Shown here: one piece after another, positions 31,478 through 63,677 of the stretch
How the letters are laid out: every line of letters begins with the position of its first letter
How positions within the stretch are numbered: position 1 is the stretch's first letter
NCBI GenBank assembly: GCA_965207455.1
Contig: CBDBMJ010000001.1
Coordinates: forward strand, 448,001-512,000
From: Bdellovibrionota bacterium
Lineage (GTDB): Bacteria > Bdellovibrionota > UBA1018 > CAIPTA01 > JAALKR01
Reading direction: 5' to 3'
DNA length: 64,000 bases
Made by a program: the position numbers and the translations under genes
Notes under the pieces: generated by a model
Seen by the model: the letters and a program-made list of their open reading frames with translations, nothing else
The model's database searches: none
Told to the model about the DNA's origin: nothing

Positions 31478-31478
31478 T

Positions 31479-45372: not shown

Positions 45373-45375
45373 CGT

Positions 45376-46023
45376 TTATACCACCAAATAAAATAAGGGA
45401 AAAAGGAATATCCAGATTAAGTCCACTAGGTGCCAATATAGTCCCACAAATTCTACAGCAGTAAAGTTTTCAGAGTTGAAATCGCCTCGTCTGAGTCGCC
45501 ACATTAACCATAGTAGGCAAATCATTCCTCCTATAACGTGGATGCCATGGAGTCCTGTCATCATAAAATATAGGGAGAAAAACAGGGAGGCGTTTTCCAC
45601 ATGTTCCATGGCAGGGAAGTTAAAATACTTGCCTGGTAGAAGTCCTTCATGGATTTTATGGCTGTACTCAAAATATTTAATGACCATAAAGACACCAGCA
45701 CAAAGAAAGGTGAGTATTAAATTTATCATGGCTTTGCCGAGTTGGTTGCGTTGAACATAAGCAATAGCAAGGGCCATTGTTAGTGAGCTGACCAGCAAAA
45801 CTACGGTATTTATGGATCCCATAACTTTATCTAAGTGGTGATGGGCTTCCTTGAATGTTTCTGGGTAGAGGTAATTAAAGAGAATAAAAGCGACGAAGAG
45901 TCCTCCAAAGAGCATCACCTCTTGGACTAGGAAGAGCCACATGCCAAATTTGCTGGACTCAAACTCATGCTCCTTACTTTTAAACCAAGGAGCGAAATCT
46001 TGTGTTCTTTCTTTACTACTCAT
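45376..46023 (-). CDS. ctaE: Cytochrome c oxidase subunit III
   Basis: Motifs GMWLFL..E..LFGGLF, TGLHG.HV and LYWHLVDLIWIFLFP. Confidence 0.93.
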   Translation of the reverse strand: MSSKERTQDFAPWFKSKEHEFESSKFGMWLFLVQEVMLFGGLFVAFILFNYLYPETFKEAHHHLDKVMGSINTVVLLVSSLTMALAIAYVQRNQLGKAMINLILTFLCAGVFMVIKYFEYSHKIHEGLLPGKYFNFPAMEHVENASLFFSLYFMMTGLHGIHVIGGMICLLWLMWRLRRGDFNSENFTAVEFVGLYWHLVDLIWIFLFPLFYLVV

Positions 46024-46026
46024 AGT

Positions 46027-47616
46027 TTATGTTCGTCCATACTCATACGGTCCTGTGTTCACAGAGGGGTCTTTTTCAAAGTTATGGGTAATGGGAGGGG
46101 AGGAGGCAGCCGTCCACTCCAAAGTGGTACTTCCCCAAGGATTAGAGGGAGCTTTTTTTCCATAGAATAGGCAGAAGATCCAATTGAAGAAAGCAATAAA
46201 TATGCCCGCAGCAATGAGGAACGCGCCTACTGTGGAGACTTGGTTAAGGAATTGAAATTTTTCTATATAGGAAAAATATCGACGGGGCATTCCGTTAGCA
46301 CCTAAGAAAAACTGGGTGAAAAAAGTGATGTTAAAGCCCACAAAGAAAAGTACAAAGCTTACTTTTCCCCAGAATTCATGGAACATTCTTCCCGTAATTT
46401 TCGGATACCAATGGAAAATTCCCGATAGTAATGCGGTTACGGTGCCTCCTACCATCACATAGTGAAAGTGGGCAACAACGAAATACGTGTCATGGTAGTG
46501 TTGATCCAAGGACAGCGCTCCGAGGAAAATTCCCGTTAGTCCTCCAATGGCAAGAGTAAAGAGAAAACCCAGGGTATAGAGCATGGGTGTTTGTAAACTA
46601 ATGGAGCCCTTATATAGTGTGGCTGTCCAGTTAAAGATTTTAATGCCAGTGGGAATAGCTGTGAGCATAGTCATTGCGGAAAATAGTATATTAGCTAGAG
46701 GACTTTCTCCGCTGGTAAACATATGGTGACCCCAAACAAAGAAACTTACCAAGGCTAGGCCTATGGAGGAGTAGGCAATCATCTTATAGCCAAAGATTAC
46801 TTTACGAGCAAACGTGGTAATGACTTCACTGATAATGCCAAAGGCGGGAAGGATCATAATATAAACGGCAGGATGGGAATAAAACCAAAAGAAGTGTTGA
46901 AAGAGGACGGGATCTCCTCCGAGGGCAGGGTCAAAGAATCCGATGCCTAATAGTCGTTCCATCATAAGAAGCACTAGTGTGATGGCAAGTACGGGAGTGG
47001 CTACTAATTGGAGAAGGCTGGTGGCGTAGATGGCCCAGACAAATAGGGGCATGCGCATCCAAGTCATACCAGGGCAGCGTAATTTATGGACAGTGACCAT
47101 AAAATTAAGACCGGTAAATATGGATGCGAATCCCATGATAAATACACCACCCACCATGCTTAGAACAGCAGTATTGGTTTGCATACTATAGGGGGCATAG
47201 AAGGTCCAGCCCGTGTCTGCCCCTGCGCCACTTATTAAGCCGTAGAGATTCAAACCCATGCCCGCTAATAGAATATAATAACTGGCTAGGTTTAATTTTG
47301 GAAAGGCCACATCCTTTGCTCCAATCATAAGGGGCAAAAAGAAATTACCCAATGCTCCTGGAATGGCAGGAATGATAAACCAAAAAACCATGATAGCTCC
47401 ATGGAGAGTAAATGTCCGGTTATAAGCGTTTGCGCTTAAAAAATCTTGAGCGGGAGTCCAGAGTTCTGCACGTATTACAAGGGCTAAGATGCCGCCAACA
47501 AGAAAAGATAACAGAGTGGTGGATAGGTAGAGGATACCAATACGTTTATGATCAAAGGTATAGATCCAACTCAACAGCCCCTTTTTTTCTTCTATATAAC
47601 TCAAATGACCAGACAT
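46027..47616 (-). CDS. ctaD: Cytochrome c oxidase subunit I (type A2)
   Basis: Motifs [15 protein letters not shown] (the YS motif of type A2), VWGHHM, AHFHY and GMPRRY. Confidence 0.97.
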
Positions 47617-47637
47617 CTTTTTCCTTTCTAAAAATAG

Positions 47638-48633
47638 CTACTTTAACGTTTTTATATAAGCAATGAGTTCATTCACTTCTTCATCTGTAAGTGTCCCACG
47701 AAACGTGGGCATACTGGCAGGGTATCCTTTTACTACTTCTTTCATGGGGTCCATTAAAGACCTGCGAATATAATTTTCATCTACGGTTACTTTCTTTCCA
47801 TTGGATAATTCTGTGATGCGATTAAAAGCGCCCTTAAAGGTGGGACCCACAAGGCGACTGCCGTTTATGGAGTGGCATACATTACAAGTTTTTGTTTTAT
47901 ATAGGATTGCACCTCGTTGGGCTATGGTTAGGACGTTGGGGGGCTTTGTTTTTGCTGCTGTTGTTGGGGTTTTTGAATTTTCTGATGTTTTTGGAGCATA
48001 TAGGTTTTGCTCCCATCGTCGGAAATTTTCCGGTTCTAGCACATGCACTTTGCCTAACATCATAGAGTGGGAAGTGCCACAATATTCTGCGCAATAGATG
48101 ATATATTCCCCTATCCTAGTTGGGCGAAACCGAAGAGTTGTGAATAGACCGGGCACCACATCTTGTTTAATACGGAAGGCAGGAACAAAAAAACTATGCA
48201 ATACATCTTTAGATGTCATGATGAGTTTAATATCCTTTCCTTTCGGCACATAGAGTGTGTTGGCAAGGATTTTACCATTCGCATATTGCATTTCCCATGA
48301 CCATTGACGGGCCAAAATGTTTATTTCATACTCGTTCATTTTGGGAGTAATATTTTTTATATAATCTCGGAGGCCCCAGAAGAAAGTAATAGCAGCAATC
48401 AAGCCGATAACAAACATGCTTCCCCACTCTAACCAATGATTGTTTGGAATATAGGCAACTGTATCGGACTCTGATCGCCTGCGGTATTTCACCACAAAGA
48501 AGAGGCCCGATCCGAGGACAGCAAGGAATAGAACTAGGCTTACAGCTAATAAAAAGACGAAGAAATCCTGATAGTTTTGAGCACTATCGGAAGCGATGGG
48601 TAGGGTAGAAAAAAACGAAGACAGAATGGTCAA
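47638..48633 (-). CDS. ctaC: Cytochrome c oxidase subunit II with a C-terminal cytochrome c (caa3 type)
   Basis: DVLHSF, CuA motif CAEYCGTSHSMM and CNVCH. Confidence 0.95.
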   Translation of the reverse strand: MTILSSFFSTLPIASDSAQNYQDFFVFLLAVSLVLFLAVLGSGLFFVVKYRRRSESDTVAYIPNNHWLEWGSMFVIGLIAAITFFWGLRDYIKNITPKMNEYEINILARQWSWEMQYANGKILANTLYVPKGKDIKLIMTSKDVLHSFFVPAFRIKQDVVPGLFTTLRFRPTRIGEYIIYCAEYCGTSHSMMLGKVHVLEPENFRRWEQNLYAPKTSENSKTPTTAAKTKPPNVLTIAQRGAILYKTKTCNVCHSINGSRLVGPTFKGAFNRITELSNGKKVTVDENYIRRSLMDPMKEVVKGYPASMPTFRGTLTDEEVNELIAYIKTLK

Positions 48634-49445
48634 GGCTTGCCTCTCTTTAAAAAATACCTGCGACGAATGAATAATGTTATATAAGTAAGCAATATTAGAA
48701 CAACGGTTACGCCTCCCCCAGCCTTCATCAAGCGACTAGCCAAGAGAACGTAACGATTTTCCTTTGGAGAATAATTATAACAAAAAAGAAGGATTCTTTC
48801 AGTGATTGTCCCCACTTTTCCCTTCGACGCTTCGAGTAAGGCTAATTTTAAATTTTGTCCACCATAATTGCTTCCATAGAGTACCCGGCTTAGCTTTCCT
48901 TTGGGGGAAAGAATAAAGATGCCTGCTCCGTGGGCGAAATCATTTTGTTCGGGGTTGAATCGATAGCCAAAGCCCAATTCTGAGGCGGTTTTTTTCGCTC
49001 CTTTTCCTGTGAGAAAGTGCCAATGTTTCGTGCTTTCCTTTTCTTCCCAGGATTCAAAGAATTTTTTTTTGCTACTAGCGGCCAATTGGAAGTCCTCCCG
49101 GGGGTCGATACTGATGGCAAGGACTTGGTACTTTTCCCCCAGCTTCCAGGAGAGTTGCTCTACGGATTCACGCAGCGCATTTAGTAAAATACCACACAGC
49201 ATTGGACACCCATAATAAGTCATTACTATAACGACGGGTCGGGTGCCGTCAAAATATTTTTTTAGTGGAACGGTTTTGCCTTGTTCATCTTGGAATGTGG
49301 TGGAAAGGCTAAGGGAGATTCCTAAGGAAGGGCGGATGCCTATATTTTCCAGTTCCTTGGGGATGGGTTCGGCAGATTGTACCAATTGAACGGGAAGAAT
49401 AATAAAAACGAGAGGAATGAGAAGAATTTTTTGACGTATTGTCAT
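48630..49445 (-). CDS. SCO-family protein
   Basis: Motifs Y..CPMLC, SIDPRE, WHFLTG and FAH. The start is placed at the ATG at 49445, after AAGGAG. Confidence 0.88.
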   Translation of the reverse strand: MTIRQKILLIPLVFIILPVQLVQSAEPIPKELENIGIRPSLGISLSLSTTFQDEQGKTVPLKKYFDGTRPVVIVMTYYGCPMLCGILLNALRESVEQLSWKLGEKYQVLAISIDPREDFQLAASSKKKFFESWEEKESTKHWHFLTGKGAKKTASELGFGYRFNPEQNDFAHGAGIFILSPKGKLSRVLYGSNYGGQNLKLALLEASKGKVGTITERILLFCYNYSPKENRYVLLASRLMKAGGGVTVVLILLTYITLFIRRRYFLKRGKP

Positions 49446-49548
49446 AGCTTTGCTCCTTGACTTTTGTAACAAGTATACACAGGAAAAGCAATAAACAGAA
49501 AGATAAAAGGAGGGTGTGAATATGGAAAAAATCGCTGTATAAGAAGGC

Positions 49549-50304
49549 ATGGTAAAAGTCCGAGATGATGGGATTCTTTATAGATATAAAGAAAAAGATA
49601 AGGAAAAGGAAGTTCTTCTGGATTGGAAGAATGTAAAGGGACTCCACTGTTCTATTTGGACGGGTCTCATTTCCATTCGAGGAAAGCACACCATTCCTCT
49701 GCGACTACCTGAGAATGAGCTGGTGCCCCTTGTTATAGAGTTCTACACGCGATGGTCCAGAAAGTTTCCCAGCCAAGCCAAAAAGAATGCCTTCGACTAT
49801 TCAGAGCCACCGAAAAGTGCTGCGATTCTTATGATATTTATTAGTTTATTCCTGTGTTGTCTACTTTCTACTTTGCTATTTGTGGAGAGTTATACACAAA
49901 ATTTTTGCTCTCAAGCTTTAAAGAGAACTCCTGTGCGGATAGCGCCTCAGGTATTAAAAGCAAAAAAGAAAAAGAAGGGGAATTTCGCTCTCACCCTACA
50001 ATTCACTACCCTCAGTGGTCAAGTACTGAAGGGAAAGCGCTATACGGTCAAGACCTATGCGCCGGGAGAAGACCCCACTGAGTTTTCCATTATCTATGCC
50101 AGTGAGGAACCCAATTGTTGGGTTTTAAGTCAAAGTCCGGGAAAGACAGATATAAACTGGGCGAAACGTCGTTATATGGTGTGGTTTAATACCTTAGTGG
50201 GGATTGTTTTCCTTTTAACAGGTATTGCGGGGATTTTTATTGCCATACGCCGACTCACAGAAAAACGTCCTGGCCGGGATTTAATTGCCACAAATTACCC
50301 GTAG
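49549..50304 (+). CDS. Hypothetical membrane protein (two TM segments)
   Basis: 251-aa ORF with two hydrophobic stretches. Confidence 0.65.
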   Translation: MVKVRDDGILYRYKEKDKEKEVLLDWKNVKGLHCSIWTGLISIRGKHTIPLRLPENELVPLVIEFYTRWSRKFPSQAKKNAFDYSEPPKSAAILMIFISLFLCCLLSTLLFVESYTQNFCSQALKRTPVRIAPQVLKAKKKKKGNFALTLQFTTLSGQVLKGKRYTVKTYAPGEDPTEFSIIYASEEPNCWVLSQSPGKTDINWAKRRYMVWFNTLVGIVFLLTGIAGIFIAIRRLTEKRPGRDLIATNYP

Positions 50305-50305
50305 C

Positions 50306-51133
50306 TTAGGGGTTAACAAATGTGGTGGTTTTAATTGGCAGGAACCTGTCTCCTATAACAAAGTGCTTTCGTACTTTCTGGACTGCGGTTTCTTGAAAGA
50401 AATAACGAATCACACATTTTTTAGGTGGGTCTTGACCTTGTGGCCAGTCTATTTGTATATTACCCGAAGTTAATTCGCTTGAATTAAATGCTTGGTCTGT
50501 TCGGTACATTTCCTTCCCGTCACATTCCAATAGTATCGTTACTCTTGGAATGGCATTTTGCTGGTAGGTTTGGCCATCCCGAGAGTTTAGTAGAAAAATA
50601 TTGGCTTGAAAAACATCACTAAAATTCTTTACCAAACTTTCTGACTGGAATCCATTGTCGTAGCAAATATCAATAAAGAAACTGGAATCATAGTGCTCCG
50701 ATCCTATATCAAATAATACTTTCGTAAGTCTTGTTTTAAGAGAAACCCTTTGTAGGTCATCATCAAGTCTGCTTCCAAGATTATAGTTTGGTTTATCAGA
50801 GTGCAGATCTGTGGTGTTATGAACAGCTAAATAAGGAACTTGATTTAAAGTAATTTCACCATAGGTGCTACTATACAGGGTTTTAGCTTCAGCAGTGCCG
50901 TTAGAATCGCTGGATGAGTATCTCGAGGTGTATTGAATACCATTTTTCCCATCAGCCTTAGAAATCCCCGCATTACAAGCATAGAGGTCTTGTCCTGAAC
51001 TACGAACATCAAAGGTAAATTCTAATCTGGATTCCACCATTGATCTTTCTTCTTGAGGAGTTATTTCACACCAAGCTGTAGTGGTATAGAATATATTAAA
51101 TAATAGTATTTTTATTATTTTATTTTTGAACAT
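50306..51133 (-). CDS. Secreted four-Cys family paralogue 6
   Basis: Signal peptide plus ACNAGI, SSFFIDICY, LECDG and CVIRYFFQE. Confidence 0.8.
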   Translation of the reverse strand: MFKNKIIKILLFNIFYTTTAWCEITPQEERSMVESRLEFTFDVRSSGQDLYACNAGISKADGKNGIQYTSRYSSSDSNGTAEAKTLYSSTYGEITLNQVPYLAVHNTTDLHSDKPNYNLGSRLDDDLQRVSLKTRLTKVLFDIGSEHYDSSFFIDICYDNGFQSESLVKNFSDVFQANIFLLNSRDGQTYQQNAIPRVTILLECDGKEMYRTDQAFNSSELTSGNIQIDWPQGQDPPKKCVIRYFFQETAVQKVRKHFVIGDRFLPIKTTTFVNP

Positions 51134-51897
51134 TATTCATATCTCCTTATTACACTTAATTTAAGTACTGTTTTTATTTCGTTTGTTAGAGTTCGATTAT
51201 GACCACGGGGACCAGCGCTTTTTTCTTGAAAAATATAGCGGAAGCGGCAAATTCTTTCTTGACTGGAACCAATGAGTATTTTTTTTTGGCTTGCCAAATC
51301 TATTATCTCAGCATTCGCAACTATCCAGTCTTCGCTGTTTGAGACTGGTATTTGCGTCCAGCTATTACTGTCCTTTATTTTACAGAATAACTGGTATTTC
51401 ACCTCCAAACCAGAAATGATATTATATGCTTGTTGACCGCTGGTGCGGTAGTTATTGAATAGAAAACTTAATTTTGAATCTATATAAAAGTATTCATTTT
51501 TTACACCTTGAGCAGCTACAGATCGATTGTCTATACAAAAATCAATAAAATATTTTGCTCCGTAGTTATCTGAGAATAAAGCTATATTTAAGCCAGTGCC
51601 ATCTGACCCAATTTTTTTTGAAGTATCGTTTTCTGTTGTGATAGCTTCAGTAGTGTTTTCTGCACTTGGTGTTATACTTTTGTATTCTGATATTGATTCA
51701 CCCTCAAATTTGTAAAGAATGGCATCTCTTGAGGGTATACCGCGCATTATGCCAGCATTACAAATACTTAATTCTACTGTATTAAAATGAAGAAGCATCT
51801 TGAGTTGATGCTTAATAGGAAAGGCATTGATGCTTGGATAGAATAGCGCAGTTATTAATAGTAGTGAGCATAGTTTTATTTTTAAATTTTTCATCAT
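51133..51897 (-). CDS. Secreted four-Cys family paralogue 5
   Basis: Signal peptide plus ICNAGI, YGAKYFIDFC, LFCK and CRFRYIFQE. Confidence 0.8.
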   Translation of the reverse strand: MMKNLKIKLCSLLLITALFYPSINAFPIKHQLKMLLHFNTVELSICNAGIMRGIPSRDAILYKFEGESISEYKSITPSAENTTEAITTENDTSKKIGSDGTGLNIALFSDNYGAKYFIDFCIDNRSVAAQGVKNEYFYIDSKLSFLFNNYRTSGQQAYNIISGLEVKYQLFCKIKDSNSWTQIPVSNSEDWIVANAEIIDLASQKKILIGSSQERICRFRYIFQEKSAGPRGHNRTLTNEIKTVLKLSVIRRYE

Positions 51898-52734
51898 TTA
51901 ACTGCCTTCAATTATTTTTACTGCCTCTGTTCTAGTGTTAATTTTCACTTTGTCCGTTAACCCATTTTTTCTAGGCAGTCGTATTCCTCTAGAAGCCTCT
52001 CTGAATTCGTACCGGACTCTGCATGAGGTAACTGTAGCAGATTGAAGCTTTACGGAGAAGTTCTCAAATAAGATAGTGGTTCCAGTATTAAGACGTGTGT
52101 ATTCTCCCGATGATATTGTTTTGAAAGTATTTCTCCACACATTTCCACCATTTCTATCAGTTGATCGTTCTGTGCAAACTATTAAAGCTCGTGCTTCAAG
52201 AGCAGATTTCACCCTATATTGTGAATCATCATATACATTGTCAAAATCAATTGTAGCTGAGAGTTCGGTCCTTGGTATTCCAGTGTTAGTGGCAAAATTA
52301 CTTATGTTGGCGTAGCATATATCCACAAAATAGCTAGCACCATAATTCTTAGATTGTAAAATAAAAACTAGCTTTGACAATTTGCGCGTATTAAGGGCTC
52401 TATCTACATCCCAGTTTAGGTTGAGTTTTCTTGTAATGTCGTTTGAAGCAATCAATTCACCAGATATTGGAGCAGCTAGTTCTTTCTTATAACTAAGAAT
52501 TCCGATGTGGTCATCAGGAAGGTATTGATCAGTAGACACTGAAAAGAGCATTTTATCTAATTCGCCGGCATTTTCATGCCGCAGACCAGCATCGCAAGCA
52601 TGCAGAAAAACGCCTGTTCCGGAAGTAATAATGAAAGACAATTCTTTATCAACAGCCAAGGAGATCTTGGAGAATAGGAAAAAAGCGAGTGTTGGTAATA
52701 AAAAGATATGTTTTTTTATTGATTTTTTTCTCAC
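51898..52734 (-). CDS. Secreted four-Cys family paralogue 4
   Basis: AAGGAGG RBS with a GTG start, plus ACDAGL, YGASYFVDICY, IVCT and CRVRYEFRE. Confidence 0.82.
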   Translation of the reverse strand: MRKKSIKKHIFLLPTLAFFLFSKISLAVDKELSFIITSGTGVFLHACDAGLRHENAGELDKMLFSVSTDQYLPDDHIGILSYKKELAAPISGELIASNDITRKLNLNWDVDRALNTRKLSKLVFILQSKNYGASYFVDICYANISNFATNTGIPRTELSATIDFDNVYDDSQYRVKSALEARALIVCTERSTDRNGGNVWRNTFKTISSGEYTRLNTGTTILFENFSVKLQSATVTSCRVRYEFREASRGIRLPRKNGLTDKVKINTRTEAVKIIEGS

Positions 52735-52768
52735 TTTTTTCCTCCTTCTTCTTTATAAGGTTATTGTT

Positions 52769-53461
52769 TTATTCTGCAGTAACAATACCGTGTACTCTTA
52801 CTGTCATCCTAACTAATTCGCCCTCTCGCACACTTGTAGAATTTTCTCTGAATTCATACCGAACTCTACAACCTGTGGATTGTAGTCCTACCACAGTTGG
52901 AGCACTTGTGTAGGCAATCAAATCACTGCTTCCCACATTCGTCCAGTCTAGATTCAGATAAGTAACAGTATCTGATGATTCACCATCTGAGCAGACAGTT
53001 GCAACTCGTGTTTGCAGGCTTGATCTAGTTCTATAGTCATTATTATATATTGTAAAAGTAGCATTAGCTTCTAGTTTATATGTTCTTTCTGCGCTATATT
53101 CTCCTGCCACATCATCCACATAACAGAGATCCACATAGTAGACTGCTCCGTAATTAGTAGAATCCATCAAATATACAAGTTTCTCAAGCAGACCTCCTTC
53201 TCCTCCTGGAGTTACGGAACTGTTAGCAGATGCCACAAGTGTTCCAGATGATGGTGCATTTTGAGTAACCTCGGCTGTTTGACCACTGAATTTATAAATC
53301 ATAGAGTCTGCTTCTGATTGATTCTCATGAGTTAAACCAGCATCACATACCCTCAGTCGGTCTCCTTTACCGGACAGCACTGTGAAATCAAATTCTTCTA
53401 CCGCAGCAAAAGCCTGAGTAGAAAAAAGAGCCATAATTAGACACGTTGTTATTTTTTTCAT
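52769..53461 (-). CDS. Secreted four-Cys family paralogue 3 (candidate major subunit)
   Basis: Signal peptide ending in AFA plus VCDAGL, YGAVYYVDLCY, TVCS and CRVRYEFRE. Alternative in-frame ATGs at 53497 and 53533. Confidence 0.82.
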   Translation of the reverse strand: MKKITTCLIMALFSTQAFAAVEEFDFTVLSGKGDRLRVCDAGLTHENQSEADSMIYKFSGQTAEVTQNAPSSGTLVASANSSVTPGGEGGLLEKLVYLMDSTNYGAVYYVDLCYVDDVAGEYSAERTYKLEANATFTIYNNDYRTRSSLQTRVATVCSDGESSDTVTYLNLDWTNVGSSDLIAYTSAPTVVGLQSTGCRVRYEFRENSTSVREGELVRMTVRVHGIVTAE

Positions 53462-53565
53462 TGTTGTTTCCTTTCTGTTTATTATTGTTGTTTTCATTGT
53501 TGTTTCCTTTCTGTTTATTATTGTTGTTTTCATTGTTGTTTCCTTTCTGTTTATTGTTGTTGTTT
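53455..53565 (-). repeat. 36-bp tandem repeat (about 3 copies), each carrying an RBS and ATG
   Basis: Unit AACAACAATAATAAACAGAAAGGAAACAACAATGAA on the minus strand. Confidence 0.9.
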
Positions 53566-53591
53566 ATGTACATAATCAAAATCATTCTAGT

Positions 53592-54482
53592 TCAGAGTTT
53601 AAACTCAGTATTGTATTTATTTTCATTGATGGATTTTATTTCTGTAAATGTGGATATTTCAATATTTATATTTCTGTCATTCCTTTTCTTATCAATATTA
53701 TTCTCCCTGAATTTATATCTGGTTACACATTTATTTCTAACGATATCGTTGTCTTTACTAATTTTAAATTCCTTGTTTTCAAAAGAAGTTTTTCCGGTGG
53801 CATGGATCCATTCTGATTCCAACAATTTTTCTCCATTGCACCAAAGTTCATACTTGAAGGATAGATATGAATCTTTTATATAATCTGCATTATTGGGAAG
53901 AGTTACTTCAGATCTGAAATACATTGTATTATTTTCTTTCTCCAAACCATCAGTGTTTGGGTCATTAGGGGTAGCTACAATTGTTCCTCCAGCACCATTA
54001 TAATGACAGATATCCACAAAATATTCTGATCCAGAGAAATCTGATTGAAGGTAGTATTTTAGGTTTTTCAAGACAATTAAACGATCAATTCCGTTTGCAT
54101 TTTTTACTCTATGTTTTGTTGTGTCACTGGAATATGTTCTATCATCTCCAGTCTCATTATTTGCAACAACCCATTTTTCATCATTTTTAGAACGCTTACT
54201 AGATGGAGGTCTAGTGAAATAGGAAGAGTTATCATTTAGGTCATTTCTCATAAATTTTCTAGGTTCATATTCAGCAAATTGATAATGTATTTCATCTCCT
54301 GATAAATCTCCAAGACTGTTAGGTGGCTCAACTGTTTCAGTAGAACTTATTCGCCTTAGACCAGCATTGCATGGGTAAAGATTATTTCCAGTGGTAATAA
54401 CTCGAAATGAGAAATTATTCGAAGCTCCCATTGCGCTAAATAAGATAAGAAATGAAGTTAAGATAGAAAGTATACTCTTCAT
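53592..54482 (-). CDS. Secreted four-Cys family paralogue 2
   Basis: Signal peptide plus PCNAGL, GSEYFVDICH, LWCNG and CVTRYKFRE. Confidence 0.8.
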   Translation of the reverse strand: MKSILSILTSFLILFSAMGASNNFSFRVITTGNNLYPCNAGLRRISSTETVEPPNSLGDLSGDEIHYQFAEYEPRKFMRNDLNDNSSYFTRPPSSKRSKNDEKWVVANNETGDDRTYSSDTTKHRVKNANGIDRLIVLKNLKYYLQSDFSGSEYFVDICHYNGAGGTIVATPNDPNTDGLEKENNTMYFRSEVTLPNNADYIKDSYLSFKYELWCNGEKLLESEWIHATGKTSFENKEFKISKDNDIVRNKCVTRYKFRENNIDKKRNDRNINIEISTFTEIKSINENKYNTEFKL

Positions 54483-55078
54483 GGTAATTGCCTTATTTGG
54501 GTTGTTATATTTAGTTCAATATTAAATACTTCTCCATTACAATAAGCGTACTTGGCTAAATTTGTTCTTCTAAATTTTGTTGTGCTGAAAAATACTATTT
54601 TTTGTGTTTTCTTCTCATTTTCATTCATTTTGCATAGATTTAAATACTTTTCTTCTCTGGCTGGGTCTGAATATCTTTCAAATTGATTAAAAATATTTTT
54701 AGGATGAAGTGTTACAAAATCTCCTGTTTTTAAGAGTTCCCTTAGTCCTTCGGTTGCTGAATTATCTTGGTATGATACTCTAAAAAAAGAATCCATTTGA
54801 TTAAAAATCAAGTGCATTGTAAGGCTGTTGCTTGCACAATTACGGCAGTATTTTTCATTTATATCGCAGGATAGCTGGTCTCCGCAAAGTTCAGCACAAA
54901 ATGTGCTTTCTGAGTTGCAGGAAATGGAGACATATTTTTGATACTTCATGCCATTATCTGTGAAATTTACTTCAATTTTTAAATCACTAAATTCTTCCAT
55001 TGCTTGTGCTGTATGTTGGAAGCATACGGATAGGAGTAGAAAATAAATAGGAATTATTTTTTTTGTATTATTTTTCAT
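54479..55078 (-). CDS. Secreted Cys-rich hypothetical protein
   Basis: Signal peptide plus C-x6-C-x3-C-x5-C-x6-C-x2-C. ATGA-coupled to the next gene. Confidence 0.75.
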   Translation of the reverse strand: MKNNTKKIIPIYFLLLSVCFQHTAQAMEEFSDLKIEVNFTDNGMKYQKYVSISCNSESTFCAELCGDQLSCDINEKYCRNCASNSLTMHLIFNQMDSFFRVSYQDNSATEGLRELLKTGDFVTLHPKNIFNQFERYSDPAREEKYLNLCKMNENEKKTQKIVFFSTTKFRRTNLAKYAYCNGEVFNIELNITTQIRQLP

Positions 55079-55090
55079 ATTTCCAACCGA

Positions 55091-57892
55091 TCACCTAAAG
55101 TATTCTTTAGGTAGCCTACTTTTCCTTATTGTGCAATTTCCATCTGATTTTTGTTTTCCAAGACTAGACGCTCCTTGATAATCTAATGTTGCATAAATTT
55201 TTATAGAGTTTTTTGATTCGTTAAGTTTAACTTTTGCATAACCAAACTTGGCGAATTCTTTCATATCAATGTTTGATATAAAATTACTATTTTTTAAATA
55301 TTTCTGTGTTTGGTAATAAATGTTTTTCATGCATTTTGGATATGGATAGGGCCAGCATTTTCTGCCATTTTTTATTTGATTCAAGCAAATTTTAGGTATG
55401 GACTCATCATCGCCAAACTCTGAGCTAACAAGCTGTAGATTATCTAAATCTATTGTGCGAGAGTCTGGAATATTGTATGGGTCGTTTTCTTTTCTATAAG
55501 AGTAAGACAAAAGGCTTTCAATGAAAAATAGAGGATTGAAGTAATCTTGAATAATAGGGAGGGAACTGAGACTTATATAACAAGCGCCACAGCCGGCGAA
55601 GTTAGAGCTTTTCTTACTTAATTTACCATCATTGCCAATAATATGATCTATATTTTGACTGCTACCACAATATTGTGTAGTGATTCCAATGGACACGGGA
55701 GGCATAATAGTAGCATATTTTAATTTTTCATCGATGGATATGGTGCACGGTATATTGAATAAAGGTCCAAGATTTGCTATTAATCCAACCTTGATCGTTT
55801 GTTTTTCTTTATTGGTTTTAAATTTAATTTTTCCATCTTCAATCAATCTCTCTAAGCTAATCACTTCCCCCGGGTCTAAACGGACATTCAAAATGGCTAG
55901 CCAAGGATTTACAGCGAATAAAGCACCTCTAAAGATTGAAGCAATAATATTAAATATTCTTTCATTTGTTGCTGCCCAAGGATCGTATAATTCGCAAGCA
56001 ACTCTCTCTGAATAAGGATTGAACATGGCTGGTGAACGAATTTCACCCGACAAAGCAAGAAGTGGCTCCATATTATTCATGCTTGAGTATGTATTCATTA
56101 TAGAATCTTGAAGCAGAAGTGTGCAATCAAGTAGAGTACCGCATAATATATTTTTTGAATTTTTATTTTTACTGTATCCAGGTAAAACAGCAAATGGCTC
56201 TCTTAATGAGTCTCTACCATAGTTTCTTTTGCTAATTATATTTTCATTTTCTATCATTCCAACTTTCTTTAATTCATCTAAAAACCATTGACTGTGACCG
56301 CGTTTAGTGCCTTTATTTCTGTTGAATCTGAGGTCTCTTTTCTCACAGAAACGTACAACCTCATCTCTTATTTCTTGATAGTAACTTAAACTCTCTCGTA
56401 TAGTTGAAGCTGGAATAAAACCAGATAAATTATTTAATTGACCTATCTTCTCCATGGAATCAATCTTTGATTTCATTCCATTGATAAAATTATTATTAGT
56501 GAAAGTATATTCGGAGCACATAAAGTAAAGTCTATTGTCTTTTGAACTATCTTTGACCCAAGCATCATTATTGAAATTTATTAATAGTTTTTCTTTAGTG
56601 AGTTGACTTTTTATGAAAGATAGAACTTTTAGGGCAGAAGCCAGTTTTCTTTTAGTGTATATACCGGCCTTTGATACTTTAGAAAATAGATCGCTTGTCC
56701 ATTTCGATGCACTTGGTGATTGGTCAATATTATCCTCATAGTATATTCTGAGTGAATTATTGTTTACCGCAGGAAGAGGATTTTTCAATAGACTTTTTTC
56801 CAATTCCTCCGGCAGTGATGTGAAGTAATCATCATAAAGTTTCTGAATTTTTTGATTGGGATCTGCTAGCCTTCGCATGGAGTTCAAATATATGTGATTG
56901 CTGCTGCATGAAGGAACATTAATTGAAGCACACCCATTTGGCACAAATATAATCGATTCTTCTAAATTTATGCTTCTAAGTAAATAACTGTATTTGTTTT
57001 TTTTGGACTCATCTGAGTTTCTCCATGCCCAAGATAAATAAATCTTTAAACTATTCCAGTAATCGAATCCATTTTTTTCCCATGAATCCGTATTTGTATT
57101 TAAAATATCTAATTGATAAGTTCCATTTTTTTCTGAAGATGGATTATCACAGGAGCTTATATATTTACCCTTTTCCTTTAATGTTTTATTTAACTTAAAG
57201 ATCGAATCATCATCTGGGCGTGGTTTCACTAGATGGCTTTGTAGAGGAGAAAATTTCTTTATATAATGACAAGAAAGGTTTCCCAATACGCTAGGATTAT
57301 TTTTATTATTGTTACCCCATATTTTTTCAATATAATTGTCCATATTGGAACAATTCCACTCATTCCCTTGGCATGATTGCACCACTTTCCAATATTCGGC
57401 ATTATTTTTTAAGGACTTTTCATTGGAAGATGAAGGCAGGAGAGGTAATGAGCCAGAACTTAGTCTTTCATGGATATTGCGGATCAATAACAATAAGGTA
57501 TTTTTATACTCAATAATAGCTTCATTTATTCTGGAATTTGTATCTGATCCCGTTTCTTTACTTAACTGGTAGGCTGCCTTTCCCACATTTGTGGAATCGA
57601 GAAGGATAAAAATAGTATTTGTTGGGTATTGGGATGCATCTGCACAAGCTGCTCTGTTTTTAAATTGTAGTGGATTTAATGAAATAGGCTTTTGGAAGTC
57701 TACTGATTTTTTCCTACCTACTATCATACTTTGGCTAAAATCAATACTACTATCATTGCCTTCTACTCTTGGGGGAAAGTTATTTGCAAATGCATTCAGA
57801 TCGAAAAAAGAAATTACTACAATAATAGGAACAGAAATATACAGAGGTAATTTCCTATTTTTAACTAGTATTTTATTTTCAAATTGAAACAT
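55091..57892 (-). CDS. Large (933 aa) secreted Cys-containing hypothetical protein
   Basis: Long ORF with an N-terminal hydrophobic segment ending in AFA and many Cys. No recognisable motif. Confidence 0.75.
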   Translation of the reverse strand: MFQFENKILVKNRKLPLYISVPIIVVISFFDLNAFANNFPPRVEGNDSSIDFSQSMIVGRKKSVDFQKPISLNPLQFKNRAACADASQYPTNTIFILLDSTNVGKAAYQLSKETGSDTNSRINEAIIEYKNTLLLLIRNIHERLSSGSLPLLPSSSNEKSLKNNAEYWKVVQSCQGNEWNCSNMDNYIEKIWGNNNKNNPSVLGNLSCHYIKKFSPLQSHLVKPRPDDDSIFKLNKTLKEKGKYISSCDNPSSEKNGTYQLDILNTNTDSWEKNGFDYWNSLKIYLSWAWRNSDESKKNKYSYLLRSINLEESIIFVPNGCASINVPSCSSNHIYLNSMRRLADPNQKIQKLYDDYFTSLPEELEKSLLKNPLPAVNNNSLRIYYEDNIDQSPSASKWTSDLFSKVSKAGIYTKRKLASALKVLSFIKSQLTKEKLLINFNNDAWVKDSSKDNRLYFMCSEYTFTNNNFINGMKSKIDSMEKIGQLNNLSGFIPASTIRESLSYYQEIRDEVVRFCEKRDLRFNRNKGTKRGHSQWFLDELKKVGMIENENIISKRNYGRDSLREPFAVLPGYSKNKNSKNILCGTLLDCTLLLQDSIMNTYSSMNNMEPLLALSGEIRSPAMFNPYSERVACELYDPWAATNERIFNIIASIFRGALFAVNPWLAILNVRLDPGEVISLERLIEDGKIKFKTNKEKQTIKVGLIANLGPLFNIPCTISIDEKLKYATIMPPVSIGITTQYCGSSQNIDHIIGNDGKLSKKSSNFAGCGACYISLSSLPIIQDYFNPLFFIESLLSYSYRKENDPYNIPDSRTIDLDNLQLVSSEFGDDESIPKICLNQIKNGRKCWPYPYPKCMKNIYYQTQKYLKNSNFISNIDMKEFAKFGYAKVKLNESKNSIKIYATLDYQGASSLGKQKSDGNCTIRKSRLPKEYFR

Positions 57893-57923
57893 ACTTTCGC
57901 TTTCCCATAAATGAAGAGATAAC

Positions 57924-58520
57924 CTACTGAATCATTCCAGAGCAGCTAGCTCCACTGTCACCTGATATAGTAATGAAAAGTGACATTATCTGTTGTTCTG
58001 AATGCGTTAACGATTCCTGTACTTCGCGATTTTCACCGTGCATGTTGGCGAGAGTTCCTGTAATTGATTTATATACTTGTCGTGTTACCCTAACTTTTAC
58101 AGTTGCGCGTCCTTGGGTGATCTTATGCTGGGCCTGTAGACTATAGTTGAGCTTTCTATCGCTGTTGGTCCCATTACTTGGGTTTGATCCGAAAAAATAA
58201 GAGTTATTACCGCCGTTATTGTAATTGCCCTTTCCTACTGATGCGCCGAAGGTGGTTTCAGTTTTGTCTCTCAGTTCACAGTCATAGGTAATTAATGTAC
58301 AACCACCCCCGTCACAGTCACGGCTTTCATCTTCTTCCAGTTCCTTTAATCTATCAAGCACCCCTTTACTAAGGGTTTTCTCATTATTTTCAGCTTCACC
58401 ATATTGCGTGGTTTGATCTGTTGCTACGCCAAGGTTGCTGATACTTATCCCTAAGAGCAAAACTCCTAGAAAAAATATGGGTTTCATTATTTTTGTTTTT
58501 TTGTTTTTTGTCATTTTCAT
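57924..58520 (-). CDS. Secreted hypothetical protein
   Basis: AAGGAG RBS, signal peptide, CDGGGC and a G/N-rich loop. Confidence 0.72.
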   Translation of the reverse strand: MKMTKNKKTKIMKPIFFLGVLLLGISISNLGVATDQTTQYGEAENNEKTLSKGVLDRLKELEEDESRDCDGGGCTLITYDCELRDKTETTFGASVGKGNYNNGGNNSYFFGSNPSNGTNSDRKLNYSLQAQHKITQGRATVKVRVTRQVYKSITGTLANMHGENREVQESLTHSEQQIMSLFITISGDSGASCSGMIQ

Positions 58521-58535
58521 CTCCTTTTTTTGTTT

Positions 58536-60275
58536 TTATTTAGTATTTTTCTCACAAATTTGTTTTTCATTGTTAGAAAAGAATAAATAATCGTAGAATT
58601 CTGTTCGATTTTTTCTAGGCAAATCACATACGGATTGAATGCTTCTTTCATAATCTTCCAATAGCCTTGACTCTCTTCTCACTGTTAAAAAATCCAGTTC
58701 CCAAAGTATATCTTGTTCAGTAAATTCCCTTTTCTTCAAAGCCTTTAATTCAACTAATAATCTTATGTAGGGATGATATCTTTGGACTGAGGTGCAGGAT
58801 TTATTATTTTTATAACAAACTTTTTTGTAATTTGGCCAAATATAATTTCTATTTGCCCCTAAGCTTGATCCATTTTTAAAGGATGAAGGGATAGTATAAG
58901 AAGCGCCTACTTTAAATCTATTTATTTTTTGTATTTCTTCTATTTTATTTGTTTCTGGAACTGTTGGAATCTCCTGCAGTCCATCCTCCATCAGACTGTT
59001 AAATGATCTGTTCTTGTCGATGAGATTGACTGGTATTATGATGTTATTTTGTTTGAATCTCCAATAGTCTGTTTTTGGATTCCTGAATGATATTGCTAGA
59101 CCGTATTTTTGTTCTTTTTCAATCTTTAAATCTTTAAATATTTTAGATATTTTGATTATGCCTTGCCATTGAGGTGATAAAATTCTTCCCATTCGCCAAG
59201 TCCATGGACTCTTGCTGGGAATTTTTTCTCCTAGTTCGCTAATTTTGTAAAATATAATTTCTGCCGCTAGGGGCTTTAAGAATGAGCAATTACTTGTGCA
59301 TATGCCATTGCGGCACACCTTTGGACATACATTATTCACAGCAATGGATGCTTTTACTTTTGTTCCTTTTTCTCCAAGATCTTGTATTTCTAAAACGCCC
59401 ATTTCAACTTCAGGCGTATAATACTCTTTAATATAAATGGGGCGATTTCTTATCTCACGAGCTAAAATTTCAGGTTTTTGTGATGATTCTAAGTGCAATC
59501 GACCTGGAATACTTCCCATTAGTATAGTTTCTTGTCCTATTTCCCCGGGGGTTGCTACATTTTTTGGATTATTTATTATTCGAACAGAGGTATAGAAAAT
59601 AAACTCAATTGGAGCAAAATTATTTTTACTAAGGAATTTCTCATTTAAACAAGACTTTTTAAATTTAGATTTTATCTGAAATTTAGCACCTTTTCCAATA
59701 TGGAAAAAACAGTCTGCTGTGGTGTTCATGATAACCTCTCGGTCCGATATAATTTCCAATTCACATTGGGGAAGATTAAAATCACTGGGTGGCTTATCTA
59801 ATATTAAGGGTAGATTGGATGTGATTTTTCTTTCTAAACAATGGGTCAAAAATTTGTGTTGTTGCACAATATTTTCTTTTCTGGCATTGAAACTTTGTAC
59901 TGGAAATCTAGCGTTCAGCAATTTTTCTTCATCCTCAGTCTCACGCATGTCTTTCGATGGATCTATATATGTTTTTACTGCATCTAAAACTATGGGGGAG
60001 GAGGCAACAGTAAATGTGATATAAAGAGAATTATTATTTGCAGCACGCTTGTCGCAGTCATCTATAGTTATTCCATTATAGTCTAAACCTGTATAGCTTT
60101 TGGCAATAGTTCTAAAGGTATCTTTTGTAACCAGTGAACCACCATAGATCACTGTTCCTCCTTTTAGCCTATTTAAAGAACATAACCCACCAGTATTTAC
60201 ACGATTTCCATCAATTCCCAGAGAGTGTGCGGAAGAAAAAAATAGTATTAGGGATAAATAAATTTTTAATTTCAT
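58536..60275 (-). CDS. Secreted beta-rich, Cys-containing hypothetical protein (579 aa)
   Basis: Signal peptide and CPKVCRNGICTSNC. Overlaps the upstream gene's stop codon. Confidence 0.75.
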   Translation of the reverse strand: MKLKIYLSLILFFSSAHSLGIDGNRVNTGGLCSLNRLKGGTVIYGGSLVTKDTFRTIAKSYTGLDYNGITIDDCDKRAANNNSLYITFTVASSPIVLDAVKTYIDPSKDMRETEDEEKLLNARFPVQSFNARKENIVQQHKFLTHCLERKITSNLPLILDKPPSDFNLPQCELEIISDREVIMNTTADCFFHIGKGAKFQIKSKFKKSCLNEKFLSKNNFAPIEFIFYTSVRIINNPKNVATPGEIGQETILMGSIPGRLHLESSQKPEILAREIRNRPIYIKEYYTPEVEMGVLEIQDLGEKGTKVKASIAVNNVCPKVCRNGICTSNCSFLKPLAAEIIFYKISELGEKIPSKSPWTWRMGRILSPQWQGIIKISKIFKDLKIEKEQKYGLAISFRNPKTDYWRFKQNNIIIPVNLIDKNRSFNSLMEDGLQEIPTVPETNKIEEIQKINRFKVGASYTIPSSFKNGSSLGANRNYIWPNYKKVCYKNNKSCTSVQRYHPYIRLLVELKALKKREFTEQDILWELDFLTVRRESRLLEDYERSIQSVCDLPRKNRTEFYDYLFFSNNEKQICEKNTK

Positions 60276-61123
60276 TTTAATTCTCCCCCAGTTAATGTGT
60301 TAATTTTCATTGTAAGTTTGGTTGAGGGGCTTTCTCGAGCTTTCAGATTGCTCTCGGAAAACGTATGTCTCATTACACACTTTTTAGGCAAATAACTAGA
60401 AATAGAATAATCACTTAATATCGTTGAATTTGTGTTAGAAATTATTGAATCCTCTTTTGAATAAACCTCTTGTCCATCACATTTTATTATCAAAGAATGT
60501 GTAAGCTTAGCTGAAATGGCATAGTTAGCCACTGTCCTTGATAGATCATCCATTGTTATGGTTAAATATAATGGCTTATTTAAATAATCATTATTTTTAA
60601 GCCTATCGCTTGCGAATGGATTTGTCCTTCCGCTGAAATAGCAAATATCTATAAAGTACTGGAAACCATAGCTCTCAGAATTGAACTCGAATGTGATATC
60701 CTTTATAGCGACTACTGCATCCTGGCTGGTATTTTTATGGACGCTAAGATTACCAGAATAAAAATATCTTAGGGAGTGAAGCACAAAGACCTTCCATTGT
60801 TGAGGATCGCTTGAAATTTTTTGCATAGAGGATACAGTTTCTTGAGATCCATTCGGATTCAAGGATATTTCCTCTGTAGTATAAATAATATGATTCCGTT
60901 TATTCTCCCCGTTAACCGTGCTGGTGGTAACCACATCATCACTAGTATACAATGAGTTTCCCTCTCCATAATTGGGAGCAGGAGAAATTCCAACGTTGCA
61001 GGGATACAGCAATGTGTATAAGGGAAGACTTTGGGCAAAAGCACTTAGATTAGCAGTGAAGTAGAATAGGAAGAAACTACCAATTAGCCTTGTAAATATT
61101 TTTTTTATTTTTACATGTCTCAC
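60272..61123 (-). CDS. Secreted four-Cys family paralogue 1
   Basis: GAGGA RBS with a GTG at 61123, signal peptide ending in AFA, plus PCNVGI, YGFQYFIDICY, IKCDG and CVMRHTFSE. Confidence 0.8.
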   Translation of the reverse strand: MRHVKIKKIFTRLIGSFFLFYFTANLSAFAQSLPLYTLLYPCNVGISPAPNYGEGNSLYTSDDVVTTSTVNGENKRNHIIYTTEEISLNPNGSQETVSSMQKISSDPQQWKVFVLHSLRYFYSGNLSVHKNTSQDAVVAIKDITFEFNSESYGFQYFIDICYFSGRTNPFASDRLKNNDYLNKPLYLTITMDDLSRTVANYAISAKLTHSLIIKCDGQEVYSKEDSIISNTNSTILSDYSISSYLPKKCVMRHTFSESNLKARESPSTKLTMKINTLTGGELK

Positions 61124-61212
61124 TTTCAAAATCCTCAATAATGACAAGAGTCAATGCCTCGCACCCTCATCCCCAACAGTGATGACTCACAATATAACTT
61201 AAGTCTGTGTGC

Positions 61213-61241
61213 AATATATTGAAGCAGATGTGATGTGTCAA
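61213..61241 (-). promoter_or_regulatory. Sigma-70-type promoter of the 10-gene operon
   Basis: TTGACA-N17-TATATT on the minus strand. Confidence 0.65.
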
Positions 61242-61531: not shown

Positions 61532-62230
61532 ATGGCAGATAAAAAAGAAACGAGAATTTTTACAGATGGGGCTTGTTCGGGAAACCCGGGTCCTGGCGGT
61601 TGGGGAGCTATTGTACTCTTTTCAGATGGTCGGGTTTTAGAAATGGGAGGAAGCCACCCAGAAACAACGAATAATCGCATGGAGCTCACTGCAGCCCTCC
61701 TGGCCTTAGAAAAATTGAGAGAATTTCCAACAGAACTCCCGTTGATCACTCTCTATACGGACTCCAAGTACCTTATCCAAGGCATGGAACAATGGACATA
61801 CCTATGGCAACGAAACCAATGGCAAACCAGTCAAGGCAAACCAGTGCTCAATATGGGTTTATGGAAAAAACTCATCCAAGCAGCCAGCAAACTACGCATA
61901 CAATGGAAGCATATCCCGGCTCACTCCAACTACCCTGGAAATGAACGTTGCGACGAGATTGCTGTAGCCTTTAGCCGAAACACCCATCCAAAATTGTATA
62001 CTGGATCCCAGGTCAACTATGGTGTGGATCTCACAGTGCTGCCCAGAGCCTCTAGTAAAGGATCCTCCAAGCCCTATTATATGAGCTATGTCGACGGGGT
62101 TCTTTTTCGGGACAGCACCTGGAATGCCTGTCAAGAGCGGGTGAAGGGGGTATCGAGAGCTAGGTTTAAAAAATGTCGGGACGAAGAGGAGGAGAGGCGT
62201 ACCCTTGAAAAGTGGGGGATTTCCCCATAA
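61532..62230 (+). CDS. rnhA: Ribonuclease HI with a C-terminal extension resembling a viroplasmin/hybrid-binding domain
   Basis: Motifs FTDGACSGNPGPGGW, TNNRMEL, TDSKY and NERCD. C-terminal TWNACQERVKG..ARFKK. Confidence 0.92.
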   Translation: MADKKETRIFTDGACSGNPGPGGWGAIVLFSDGRVLEMGGSHPETTNNRMELTAALLALEKLREFPTELPLITLYTDSKYLIQGMEQWTYLWQRNQWQTSQGKPVLNMGLWKKLIQAASKLRIQWKHIPAHSNYPGNERCDEIAVAFSRNTHPKLYTGSQVNYGVDLTVLPRASSKGSSKPYYMSYVDGVLFRDSTWNACQERVKGVSRARFKKCRDEEEERRTLEKWGISP

Positions 62231-62348
62231 TTTCTAGCTCCATGGAGCGAGTGGATCAATAGTGCTAGAAATTCCAGCTAGGTTCGTATACAGTTTTTTC
62301 ATGTTAACAAAGAAGGAAAATTCTTATGAAATCCAACAAGGAGCTATT

Positions 62349-63677
62349 ATGAAAGATTATCGTGTTTGTCCCAAGGCAATGGAAAACCCCGACTTTTTTA
62401 AGGAGTTAGCCCGTTGGGGGCGCATGGAAATTACCATTGCAGAGTCAGAAATGCCGGGTTTAATGGCGTTACGAAAAGAGTTTGGTCCTCGGCAAATTCT
62501 TAAAGGAGCGCACATTACTGGGTGTCTTCATATGACCATACAAACTGCGGTTCTTATAGAAACGTTAATCGCCTTAGGAGCCAAAATTCGTTGGTCCTCG
62601 TGTAATATTTTTTCCACTCAGGATCATGCAGCCGTAGCAATGGCAGCAGCAGGGGTGCCTATTTTTGCGTGGAAAGGAGAGACGGAAGAGGAGTTCAATT
62701 GGTGTATTGAACAAACCATCACGGGCTGGGGTGATCAGGGTTATAATTTAATTTTAGACGACGGTGGGGATTTAACCAATATGATGTGTGAAGAGCGTTT
62801 CGCAAAAGAAATGGATCGGGTTATTGGTCTATCTGAGGAAACCACCACAGGTGTGCATAACTTGGAGTGCTTAGCTCAGAATGGAAAGCTTCCCGTGCCA
62901 GCGATTAATGTGAATGACTCTGTTACAAAATCTAAATTTGATAATCTTTATGGTTGTCGTGAGTCCCTTGCCGACGGAATTAAGCGAGCCACAGATGTGA
63001 TGCTTGCGGGAAAGACGGTAGTTGTTGCGGGTTATGGTGACGTGGGTAAGGGCTGTGCAAAGTCCTTACAGTCCTATGGTTCCAGGGTATTGATTACTGA
63101 GATTGACCCTATTTGTGCTCTCCAAGCATCTATGGAGGGTTTCGAGGTAACGACTATGGAAAAAGCAGCTCCTCAGGCAGATATTTTTGTGACCGCTACT
63201 GGTTGTTGCGACATTCTCACGTCCACCCATTTTGATCAGATGAAAGGTGGAGCTATTGTTTGCAATATTGGTCACTTTGATATTGAAATTGATATGGATT
63301 GGCTCAATGGACACTCCAAACTAGAGGAAATAAAGCCCCAAGTGGACAAGCATACTCTAAAAAATGGTCGAATTATTATTGTATTGGCAAAAGGTCGATT
63401 GGTGAATTTAGGCTGTGCCACAGGTCATCCTTCTTTTGTAATGAGTAACTCTTTTACTAATCAGGTGTTGGCACAAATAGAGTTATATACCAATAAAGGG
63501 TCCAGTAAATATGGGGAGAGAAAAGTATATAGATTACCTAAAGAATTAGATGAGAAGGTGGCATTTCTTCACCTAGAAAAAGTGGGTGCTCAGCTTTCGA
63601 AGCTTTCTTCTAAGCAAGCGAAGTATTTGGGTCTTCCAGAACAGGGACCCTTTAAGCCTGATTATTATCGTTATTAG
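62349..63677 (+). CDS. ahcY: Adenosylhomocysteinase
   Basis: Motifs [39 protein letters not shown] and [10 protein letters not shown]. The start is placed after AAGGAG. Confidence 0.97.

Follow-up and report, generated by a model that had tools for sequence, protein, structure and literature searches.

We analysed a 64-kb stretch of DNA (64,000 nucleotides, hereafter the window) from a Bdellovibrionota bacterium (assembly GCA_965207455.1, contig CBDBMJ010000001.1), which carries an operon of ten genes for secreted-type proteins, six of them paralogues of one family. It represents an enlarged version of a five-family cassette, A-B-C-D-E, that is conserved in Bdellovibrionota. We lean towards the reading that the cassette encodes a surface fibre in which A subunits would be joined by donor-strand exchange, with B as their chaperone, and which would leave the cell without an usher. 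That A forms a polymer of some kind is quite likely.

A conserved cassette, expanded in this operon

The ten open reading frames (ORFs) run from 61147 to 50306 on the minus strand in the order A1-B-C-D-E-A2-A3-A4-A5-A6, where A1 (60272) to A6 (50306) denote the six paralogues and B, C, D, and E their partners. All are co-oriented and closely spaced, as an earlier note on this DNA had described, with successive intergenic distances of -4, 15, 31, 12, -4, 58, 34, 0, and -1 bases. Each of the ten opens with a basic-hydrophobic, signal-like segment, in agreement with the signal-peptide-like starts that the note had reported. Past residue 45, the highest 19-residue hydropathy of D is 1.63, and none of the other nine proteins exceeds 1.2.

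The proteins proved as unrecognised as first described. All ten stay below the Pfam and NCBIfam cut-offs, and with the threshold relaxed to E 0.05 no family has matches in more than 3 of the homologues examined (150 of A, 71 of C, 68 of B, and 46 of D). Searches of PDB sequences with profiles of all five families gave no meaningful match, and profile-profile comparisons of A with B, A with D, and C with D gave no homology. Database names in Bdellovibrio bacteriovorus HD100, “protease” for A and C and “cation-transporting ATPase” for E, would instead make these proteins secreted enzymes. We consider this very improbable, given the lack of family matches just described, the conserved residues of A (cysteines, glycines, and an Asp/Arg/Glu set with structural covariation), and the character of E, a 199-residue protein of secreted type with no transmembrane helix.

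Searching 1.84 billion representative proteins with a profile of the six paralogues (E ≤ 0.001) retrieved 250 A homologues. Among 401 genomes of the phylum, whose kin are not independent of one another, 72 contain A, 70 contain B, and 71 contain D, with A and B together in 69 and A and D together in 70. The cassette was found in none of the nine genomes in this sample that share the family or order of the source genome, so that it is patchy near that genome. Scanning 185,579 genomes for sequence patterns yielded 79 loci, mostly labelled Bdellovibrio, Bacteriovorax, Halobacteriovorax, Oligoflexia, and Silvanigrellaceae, with a few under vague or other labels. B is present in 71 of these loci, C in 62, D in 53, and E in 46, many of the loci being truncated; where a locus spans at least 20 kb, all four partners are present in 29 of 38 cases. 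The partners therefore travel with the paralogues, in keeping with the earlier proposal. In addition, A stands directly upstream of B at 65 of the 67 full-length B genes, in loci that were fetched through A.

In the source genome B, C, D, and E are each single, and searching it with a profile of related sequences recovers only the six A proteins (each at E < 1e-29). The 79 loci hold one A gene (43 loci) or two (36 loci), and none holds six; the six copies are therefore a local expansion. In a FastTree phylogeny of 125 A sequences, the paralogues account for four changes and have long branches (1.07–2.57 vs a median of 0.38), which fits a single and a multiple origin alike. Among viral contigs, none of 114 pattern matches was confirmed; a search of sequencing runs listed no RNA holder; and we found no study of these cassette genes in the open-access literature.

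Some loci differ in layout. One set, several of them labelled Silvanigrellaceae, has the order A-B-A with two C genes and neither D nor E within 10 kb. In the variant at L083, L091, L092, L094, and L079, A-B-A is followed by two opposite-strand Cys-rich genes and then by the two C genes, which are short and miss most of the C hairpin, and D and E are not found nearby. Separately, a sixth family of about 400 residues, with no Pfam match at cut-off, occurs in 19 loci and adjoins a cassette gene in 18 (for example, L017:13466-14662, L039:4205-5446, and L051:7259-8491). It has conserved TDCADA and G...H motifs reminiscent of a Cys-His enzyme and was not found in the source genome.

Family A is predicted to be a jelly-roll with a free N-terminal strand

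The members of family A are 210–400 residues long and, within the operon, divergent, with pairwise BLASTP E-values from 3e-29 (34% identity) to 0.027. Four cysteines are invariant in the alignment of the six paralogues. Of the ordered motifs listed in the earlier note, C[ND][AV]G[IL] and CxxR[YH]xFxE hold in all six, whereas the exact form SxxYGxxY[FY][VI]D[ILF]C holds in four, the deviants being A2 (53592–54482, 296 residues) and A6 (50306–51133, 275 residues).

AlphaFold2 predicts A3 (modelled with 150 sequences) to be an all-beta sandwich, with a predicted local distance difference test score (pLDDT) of 81.4 and a predicted template-modelling score (pTM) of 0.79. In this model, mature residues 11–21 lie in no sheet and the C-terminal strand lies within a sheet. 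Covariation across 254 A sequences recovers the sheet pairings together with the cysteine pairs C30-C104 and C148-C189. Altogether, the model predicts a disulfide-stapled jelly-roll whose N-terminal strand is free. The disulfide-stapled beta-sandwich subunits proposed earlier are thus upheld as a prediction, and the strand of interest is N-terminal rather than the beta-strand-like C-terminal tail to which attention had been drawn.

Read by eye, the A consensus places an alternating xFxFxVxSSG strand immediately behind an AxA cleavage site, and position +1 is not a Cys. Two classes of A are observed. The strand pattern occurs in 61 of 64 A proteins encoded directly upstream of B, in 1 of 20 encoded directly downstream, and in 6 of 18 at other positions, and many strand-less forms have an additional Cys-rich N-terminal part. 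This operon parallels the split among relatives, five to one: the pattern is matched by A2 to A6 and not by A1 (60272–61147, 291 residues), a candidate tip or end subunit. It is most canonical in A6 and divergent in A5 (51133–51897, 254 residues); A4 (51898–52734, 278 residues) also bears the strand and is nearest to A3, at 34% identity.

When the A3 model was compared with known structures, archaeal cannula subunits were the only ones, among the matches listed, to span the N-terminal strand: 9bac (Z 5.7, root-mean-square deviation [rmsd] 5.4, 143/147 aligned), 9h8b (Z 5.3, 144/149 aligned), and 7uii (Z 5.5, 141/182 aligned). The covariation partners of this strand include, among the top-scoring ones, the C-terminal strand (205–220) and strand 83–92.

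Protein B is predicted to have the shape of a pilus chaperone

B (58536–60275, 579 residues) has 14 cysteines, and its family measures 510–580 residues with about 12–15 cysteines. It has no hydrophobic helix or membrane anchor and is predicted to be soluble. The AlphaFold2 model of B (pLDDT 80.5, pTM 0.82) consists of two immunoglobulin (Ig)-like domains, at about 30–265 and 284–550, the second interrupted by a disordered Pro-rich insert (413–477). Compared with 48,161 chains, the model has a single match at Z ≥ 8, the Enterococcus protein WxLIP (9i1y; Z 9.4, 246/267 residues, rmsd 7.1), and against another WxLIP chain, 9i25_C, it gives Z 9.5 (rmsd 6.8, 239/251 aligned). CfaA follows at Z 7.4 (196/211 aligned), and CsuC, FimC, YadV, PapD, and Caf1M match over both domains at Z 6–6.8, with PapD and Caf1M coming from a second structure search. 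Apart from WxLIP, most proteins matched across the two domains are pilus chaperones of the periplasm (CfaA, CsuC, FimC, YadV, SafB, and CupB2). The strand that closes domain 1 (250–263) is conserved, within a fold that matches chaperones at rmsd 5–7, and might serve as a donor G1 strand.

Taken together, these comparisons indicate that B is likely a chaperone-shaped two-Ig protein that would assist the fibre. The earlier note had counted B among four unrelated Cys-containing partners; as a refinement, B is predicted to be chaperone-shaped. A complex prediction of B (28–579) with A3 (11–221) gave ipSAE 0.00 twice and weighs neither way.

C, D, E, and the route out of the cell

No usher is recognisable in the operon, as the earlier note had stated: PF00577 is matched by none of the ten ORFs, and by no protein of the genome, which is 94.7% complete (an E. 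coli control was positive). The genome likewise has no match to PapD_N (PF00345) or to PF12389 (TasA/CalY). It encodes four secretins, all outside the operon, and has one marginal match to CsgG (E 2.5e-4), also outside it.

The remaining partners belong to no family. C (57924–58520, 198 residues, 4 Cys) has an alternating beta-hairpin with a Gly/Asn loop and a conserved amphipathic helix pair, and a search with its profile retrieved 45 homologues, all of them free of Pfam domains. D (55091–57892, 933 residues, 20 Cys) has conserved, mildly hydrophobic segments near 649–667, 702–720, and 778–792, and an atlas search gave neither a match nor a model for the HD100 D protein. E (54479–55078) is Cys-rich and lies behind D in most loci. 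The sequences of C and D do not have the look of a long barrel, and the cassette has no recognisable outer-membrane pore. As a guess, C could be an oligomeric membrane or anchor part and D an assembly or export platform, with C, D, and E together anchoring or exporting the fibre.

Two copies of the cassette in B. bacteriovorus HD100

HD100 has two cassette copies, Bd0749-0754 and Bd2925-2930 (12 genes). Named records identify CAE78707-78710 as A, E, D, and C, and these match Bd0751-Bd0754 by name and length in file 2 of PMC3627812. In that file, Bd0750 corresponds to B by size and position, and Bd0749 carries the name “pilus assembly protein”. Bd2925-Bd2930 follow the gene order of Bd0749-0754 at similar sizes, and CAE80705 (369 residues), a strand-bearing A, is equated with Bd2927 by length and accession offset.

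According to the RNA sequencing data of the same file, the strand-bearing A is the top transcript of each copy in growth phase (37 and 18 reads per kilobase per million [RPKM]), and the cassette genes yield more transcript during growth than during attack. At the protein level, Bd2927 alone of the 12 cassette genes appears among the 2,196 rows of file 3 of PMC12546842, with 11 peptides and at every time point. This pattern would fit a stable major subunit alongside scarce assembly factors. The supplements of PMC11323537 gave no match. Tomography has revealed thin polar fimbriae (bioRxiv 10.1101/2022.06.13.496000); a connection of the cassettes with these is unsupported, both copies being near-silent in the attack-phase RNA.

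Evidence against a donor-strand fibre and alternative readings

Several observations weigh against the fibre reading, and we consider them here alongside the alternatives. With regard to the strand, the A class found upstream of B carries a bias from the strand-bearing patterns used to retrieve the loci. Covariation of the N-terminal strand is weak, and further strands also rise above the shuffle control; parallel and antiparallel registers score alike, and one register permits self-complementation. Since other strands exceed the control and the scores do not settle the register, we treat this covariation as a hint only.

With regard to the fold, the scores of A lie within the range of unrelated beta-sandwiches, and Foldseek gives E 0.012 for TasA (8aur) and 0.021 for AbpA (7ueg), neither of which is in the 50 rows that VIA listed. 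For an A homologue, the atlas gave no feature match, and all its structure rows had template-modelling scores below 0.5; one row came from a cluster in which PF12389 makes up 32%. The cannulae are outscored by generic jelly-rolls of lectins and carbohydrate-binding proteins: the best matches of A are Fbs1/Fbs2 (Z 7.0–7.4), CBM27, and SGBP-B, all glycan-binding modules, at Z values that the comparison tool itself rates as unremarkable.

These matches raise the possibility that A does not polymerise, and that each A is a self-complemented carbohydrate binder, with six specificities displayed on a B-C-D-E scaffold. The covariation register in which the strand folds back onto its own chain would allow this, and the long branches of the paralogues are as for diversifying binders. 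We nevertheless regard such a lectin or adhesin display as improbable: AlphaFold2, given 150 sequences, leaves the strand free; one positional class keeps the strand at its mature N-terminus and the other lacks it; and in the HD100 proteome table A is the one cassette component seen.

With regard to B, its structural matches have rmsd values of 5–7 Å at 7–13% identity, and neither a Pfam match (68 homologues, of which none matches the PapD family PF00345) nor a PDB sequence match accompanies them. Lone Ig domains of glycosidases equal PapD-type chaperones in Z. Because of these glycosidase folds, the case for a chaperone rests on the coverage of two domains and on the recurrence of chaperones among the matches.

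If B were not a chaperone, A could self-polymerise into a TasA-like matrix fibre, with B as a two-Ig base, nucleator, or adhesin. Cannulae, which give the best strand-spanning matches of A, do assemble chaperone-free (described in PMC12518558); PapD-type chaperones are less than half as large as B, which is rich in cysteines and matched by Foldseek to tandem Ig adhesin domains as well; and the HD100 proteome rows of PMC12546842 do not include it. Set against this are the best whole-length matches of B, which are consistently pilus chaperones from two unrelated systems, and its position immediately after A, seen at 65 of 67 loci. We judge a chaperone-free fibre unlikely.

With regard to export and expression, D and E cannot be a universal export pore, since loci such as L083, L088, and L092 have neither within 10 kb, and all 12 HD100 cassette genes are scored silent in both attack and growth phase, at ≤ 37 RPKM (PMC3627812, file 2). 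Instead of a projecting pilus, the product might be a particle that is secreted into prey, a sheet, a tube, or a lattice in the periplasm. Such forms would agree with the tubes that cannula subunits of the same topology build (as PMC12518558 describes), with the excess of growth-phase over attack-phase transcripts, and with the lack of a recognisable outer-membrane pore in the cassette. A tip-like strand-less A and a chaperone-shaped B better suit a linear polar fibre, and we give these other forms a low probability.

Comparison with known fibre systems

In its working, the predicted fibre resembles two pilus systems. In the WxL/Elr pilus of Enterococcus (ElrE/WxLIP, DUF916+DUF3324; PDB 9i1y and 9i25), ElrE, a protein of the WxLIP type, acts as a priming chaperone of WxL pilins through donor-strand complementation, and the system is described as restricted to Bacillota (bioRxiv 10.64898/2026.10.17.759780). 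The cassette shares with it a two-Ig chaperone-like protein (the best match of B, Z 9.5), a group of paralogous subunits that have a strand at the N-terminus, variants resembling tips, and the lack of an usher. Unlike B, the chaperone ElrE has a C-terminal membrane anchor; the Elr fibre is sortase-anchored, whereas cassette hosts must cross an outer membrane, and cassette A is predicted to be disulfide-bonded. No A member (0/150) matches the WxL pilin family PF13731, and none of 68 B sequences matches DUF916 or DUF3324 in Pfam.

With chaperone-usher pili (PapD, FimC, CfaA, CsuC, and Caf1M), the cassette shares what are predicted to be periplasmic Sec substrates with disulfides, a protein B that matches chaperones over both domains (Z 6–7.4), and the coexistence of strand-bearing and strand-less, tip-like subunits. 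It differs in the lack of PF00577 and PapD_N matches in the genome, in the predicted jelly-roll and length of A, in the size of B, and in C, D, and E, which have no counterpart there.

In its subunit, the cassette resembles the TasA superfamily (TasA/CalY PF12389, AbpA, AbpX, and CanA/CanX), whose members are reported to polymerise through N-terminal donor-strand complementation (PMC12518558, bioRxiv 10.64898/2026.01.04.697558, 10.1101/2022.03.14.484220); cannulae are described as donor-strand jelly-roll fibres (PMC12518558), and the links published within the superfamily rest on HHsearch. The likeness lies in the predicted jelly-roll core, in the strand at the mature N-terminus of A that is free in the model, and in the cannula matches that span this strand. 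In contrast to these systems, the cassette has two conserved disulfides, a chaperone-shaped partner, and no signal peptidase gene, and the hosts named in the cited sources are Bacillota, Actinomycetota, Chloroflexota, and archaea, not Bdellovibrionota. HMMER matched none of 150 A members to PF12389 at E 0.05, and A had no relevant PDB sequence match.

Type V pili of Bacteroidota have a lipoprotein precursor and a C-terminal donor strand. A differs in that its donor-like strand comes right after an AxA site, +1 is not a Cys, and the model places the C-terminal strand in a sheet. The cassette is thus predicted to work like chaperone-usher and WxL pili with a subunit like those of the TasA superfamily, while it has no sequence-level match to the defining families of the first two.

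Proposed mechanism

Given their signal-like N-termini, the A proteins would be exported through Sec, cleaved, and disulfide-bonded in the periplasm, which would leave the xFxFxVxSSG strand exposed as the start of the mature protein. By likeness of fold to ElrE/WxLIP and PapD, B may then mask the open groove of A, until the strand of one A displaces B from the groove of the next, so that subunits would join head to tail. The gene pattern points to a strand-less A as a cap at one end, acting as a tip or minor subunit. Anchoring or export could fall to C, D, and E or else, again as a guess, to a secretin encoded elsewhere in the genome. With five strand-bearing paralogues, this operon might produce mixed or alternative fibres.

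A bolder version, in which TasA-like jelly-roll subunits, a PapD/WxLIP-shaped chaperone, and a C-D-E outer-membrane machine make up a new class of Gram-negative pilus, present in HD100 and built from six subunits here, is possible but rather doubtful.

Other features of the locus and the window

The earlier note had placed a TTGACA-N17-TATATT promoter ahead of the operon. This sigma-70-like candidate is present (61213–61241, minus strand) and is the best of 63 promoter-like matches, fitting 11 of 12 positions. Since the number of such sites is near chance (63 vs 51.3 ± 6.8), it is plausible but unproven as the operon promoter.

A 36-bp tandem repeat (53455–53565, no strand; 3.1 copies, 98% match) gives A3 three in-frame copies of its ribosome-binding site and ATG. 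The A3 ORF is real (52769–53533, 254 residues from the first ATG), but its start is probably 53461, behind the repeat, giving 230 residues, rather than 53533. The repeat could be genuine or an assembly artefact.

On one side, the operon is flanked by what we take from motifs to be a cytochrome c oxidase cluster (42817–49550), and on the other by RNase H and adenosylhomocysteinase genes (61532–63677, from Pfam). The lower G+C content of the operon (34.3% vs 40.2% for the genome) suggests that it is an insertion between these neighbours.

Elsewhere in the window, positions 7388–11339 encode cas1 and a compact, 1020-residue cas9 (HNH_4, RuvC_III, and Cas9_a matches), and the ORFs flanking them are presumably transposase-like, from their motifs. 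The region 27828–32516, again from motifs, we take to be a mevalonate-pathway-like cluster (prenyltransferase, kinases, decarboxylase, and type 2 isomerase). Three secreted-type ORFs (13086–13691, 33274–33906, and 41167–42678) have a repeated CWG.N..GQLG motif; by resemblance, we assume them to be RCC1-like propellers.

Implications

To our knowledge, donor-strand fibres of Gram-negative bacteria need either an usher, as in chaperone-usher pili, or a lipoprotein route, as in type V pili. If the fibre reading is true, the cassette would add a further assembly route, combining a TasA-like subunit, a chaperone-shaped partner, and three novel families, and possibly a new outer-membrane export machine. 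The cassette is readily testable, since HD100, a harmless model predator, holds two copies, mislabelled as proteases and an ATPase, with one subunit in its proteome.

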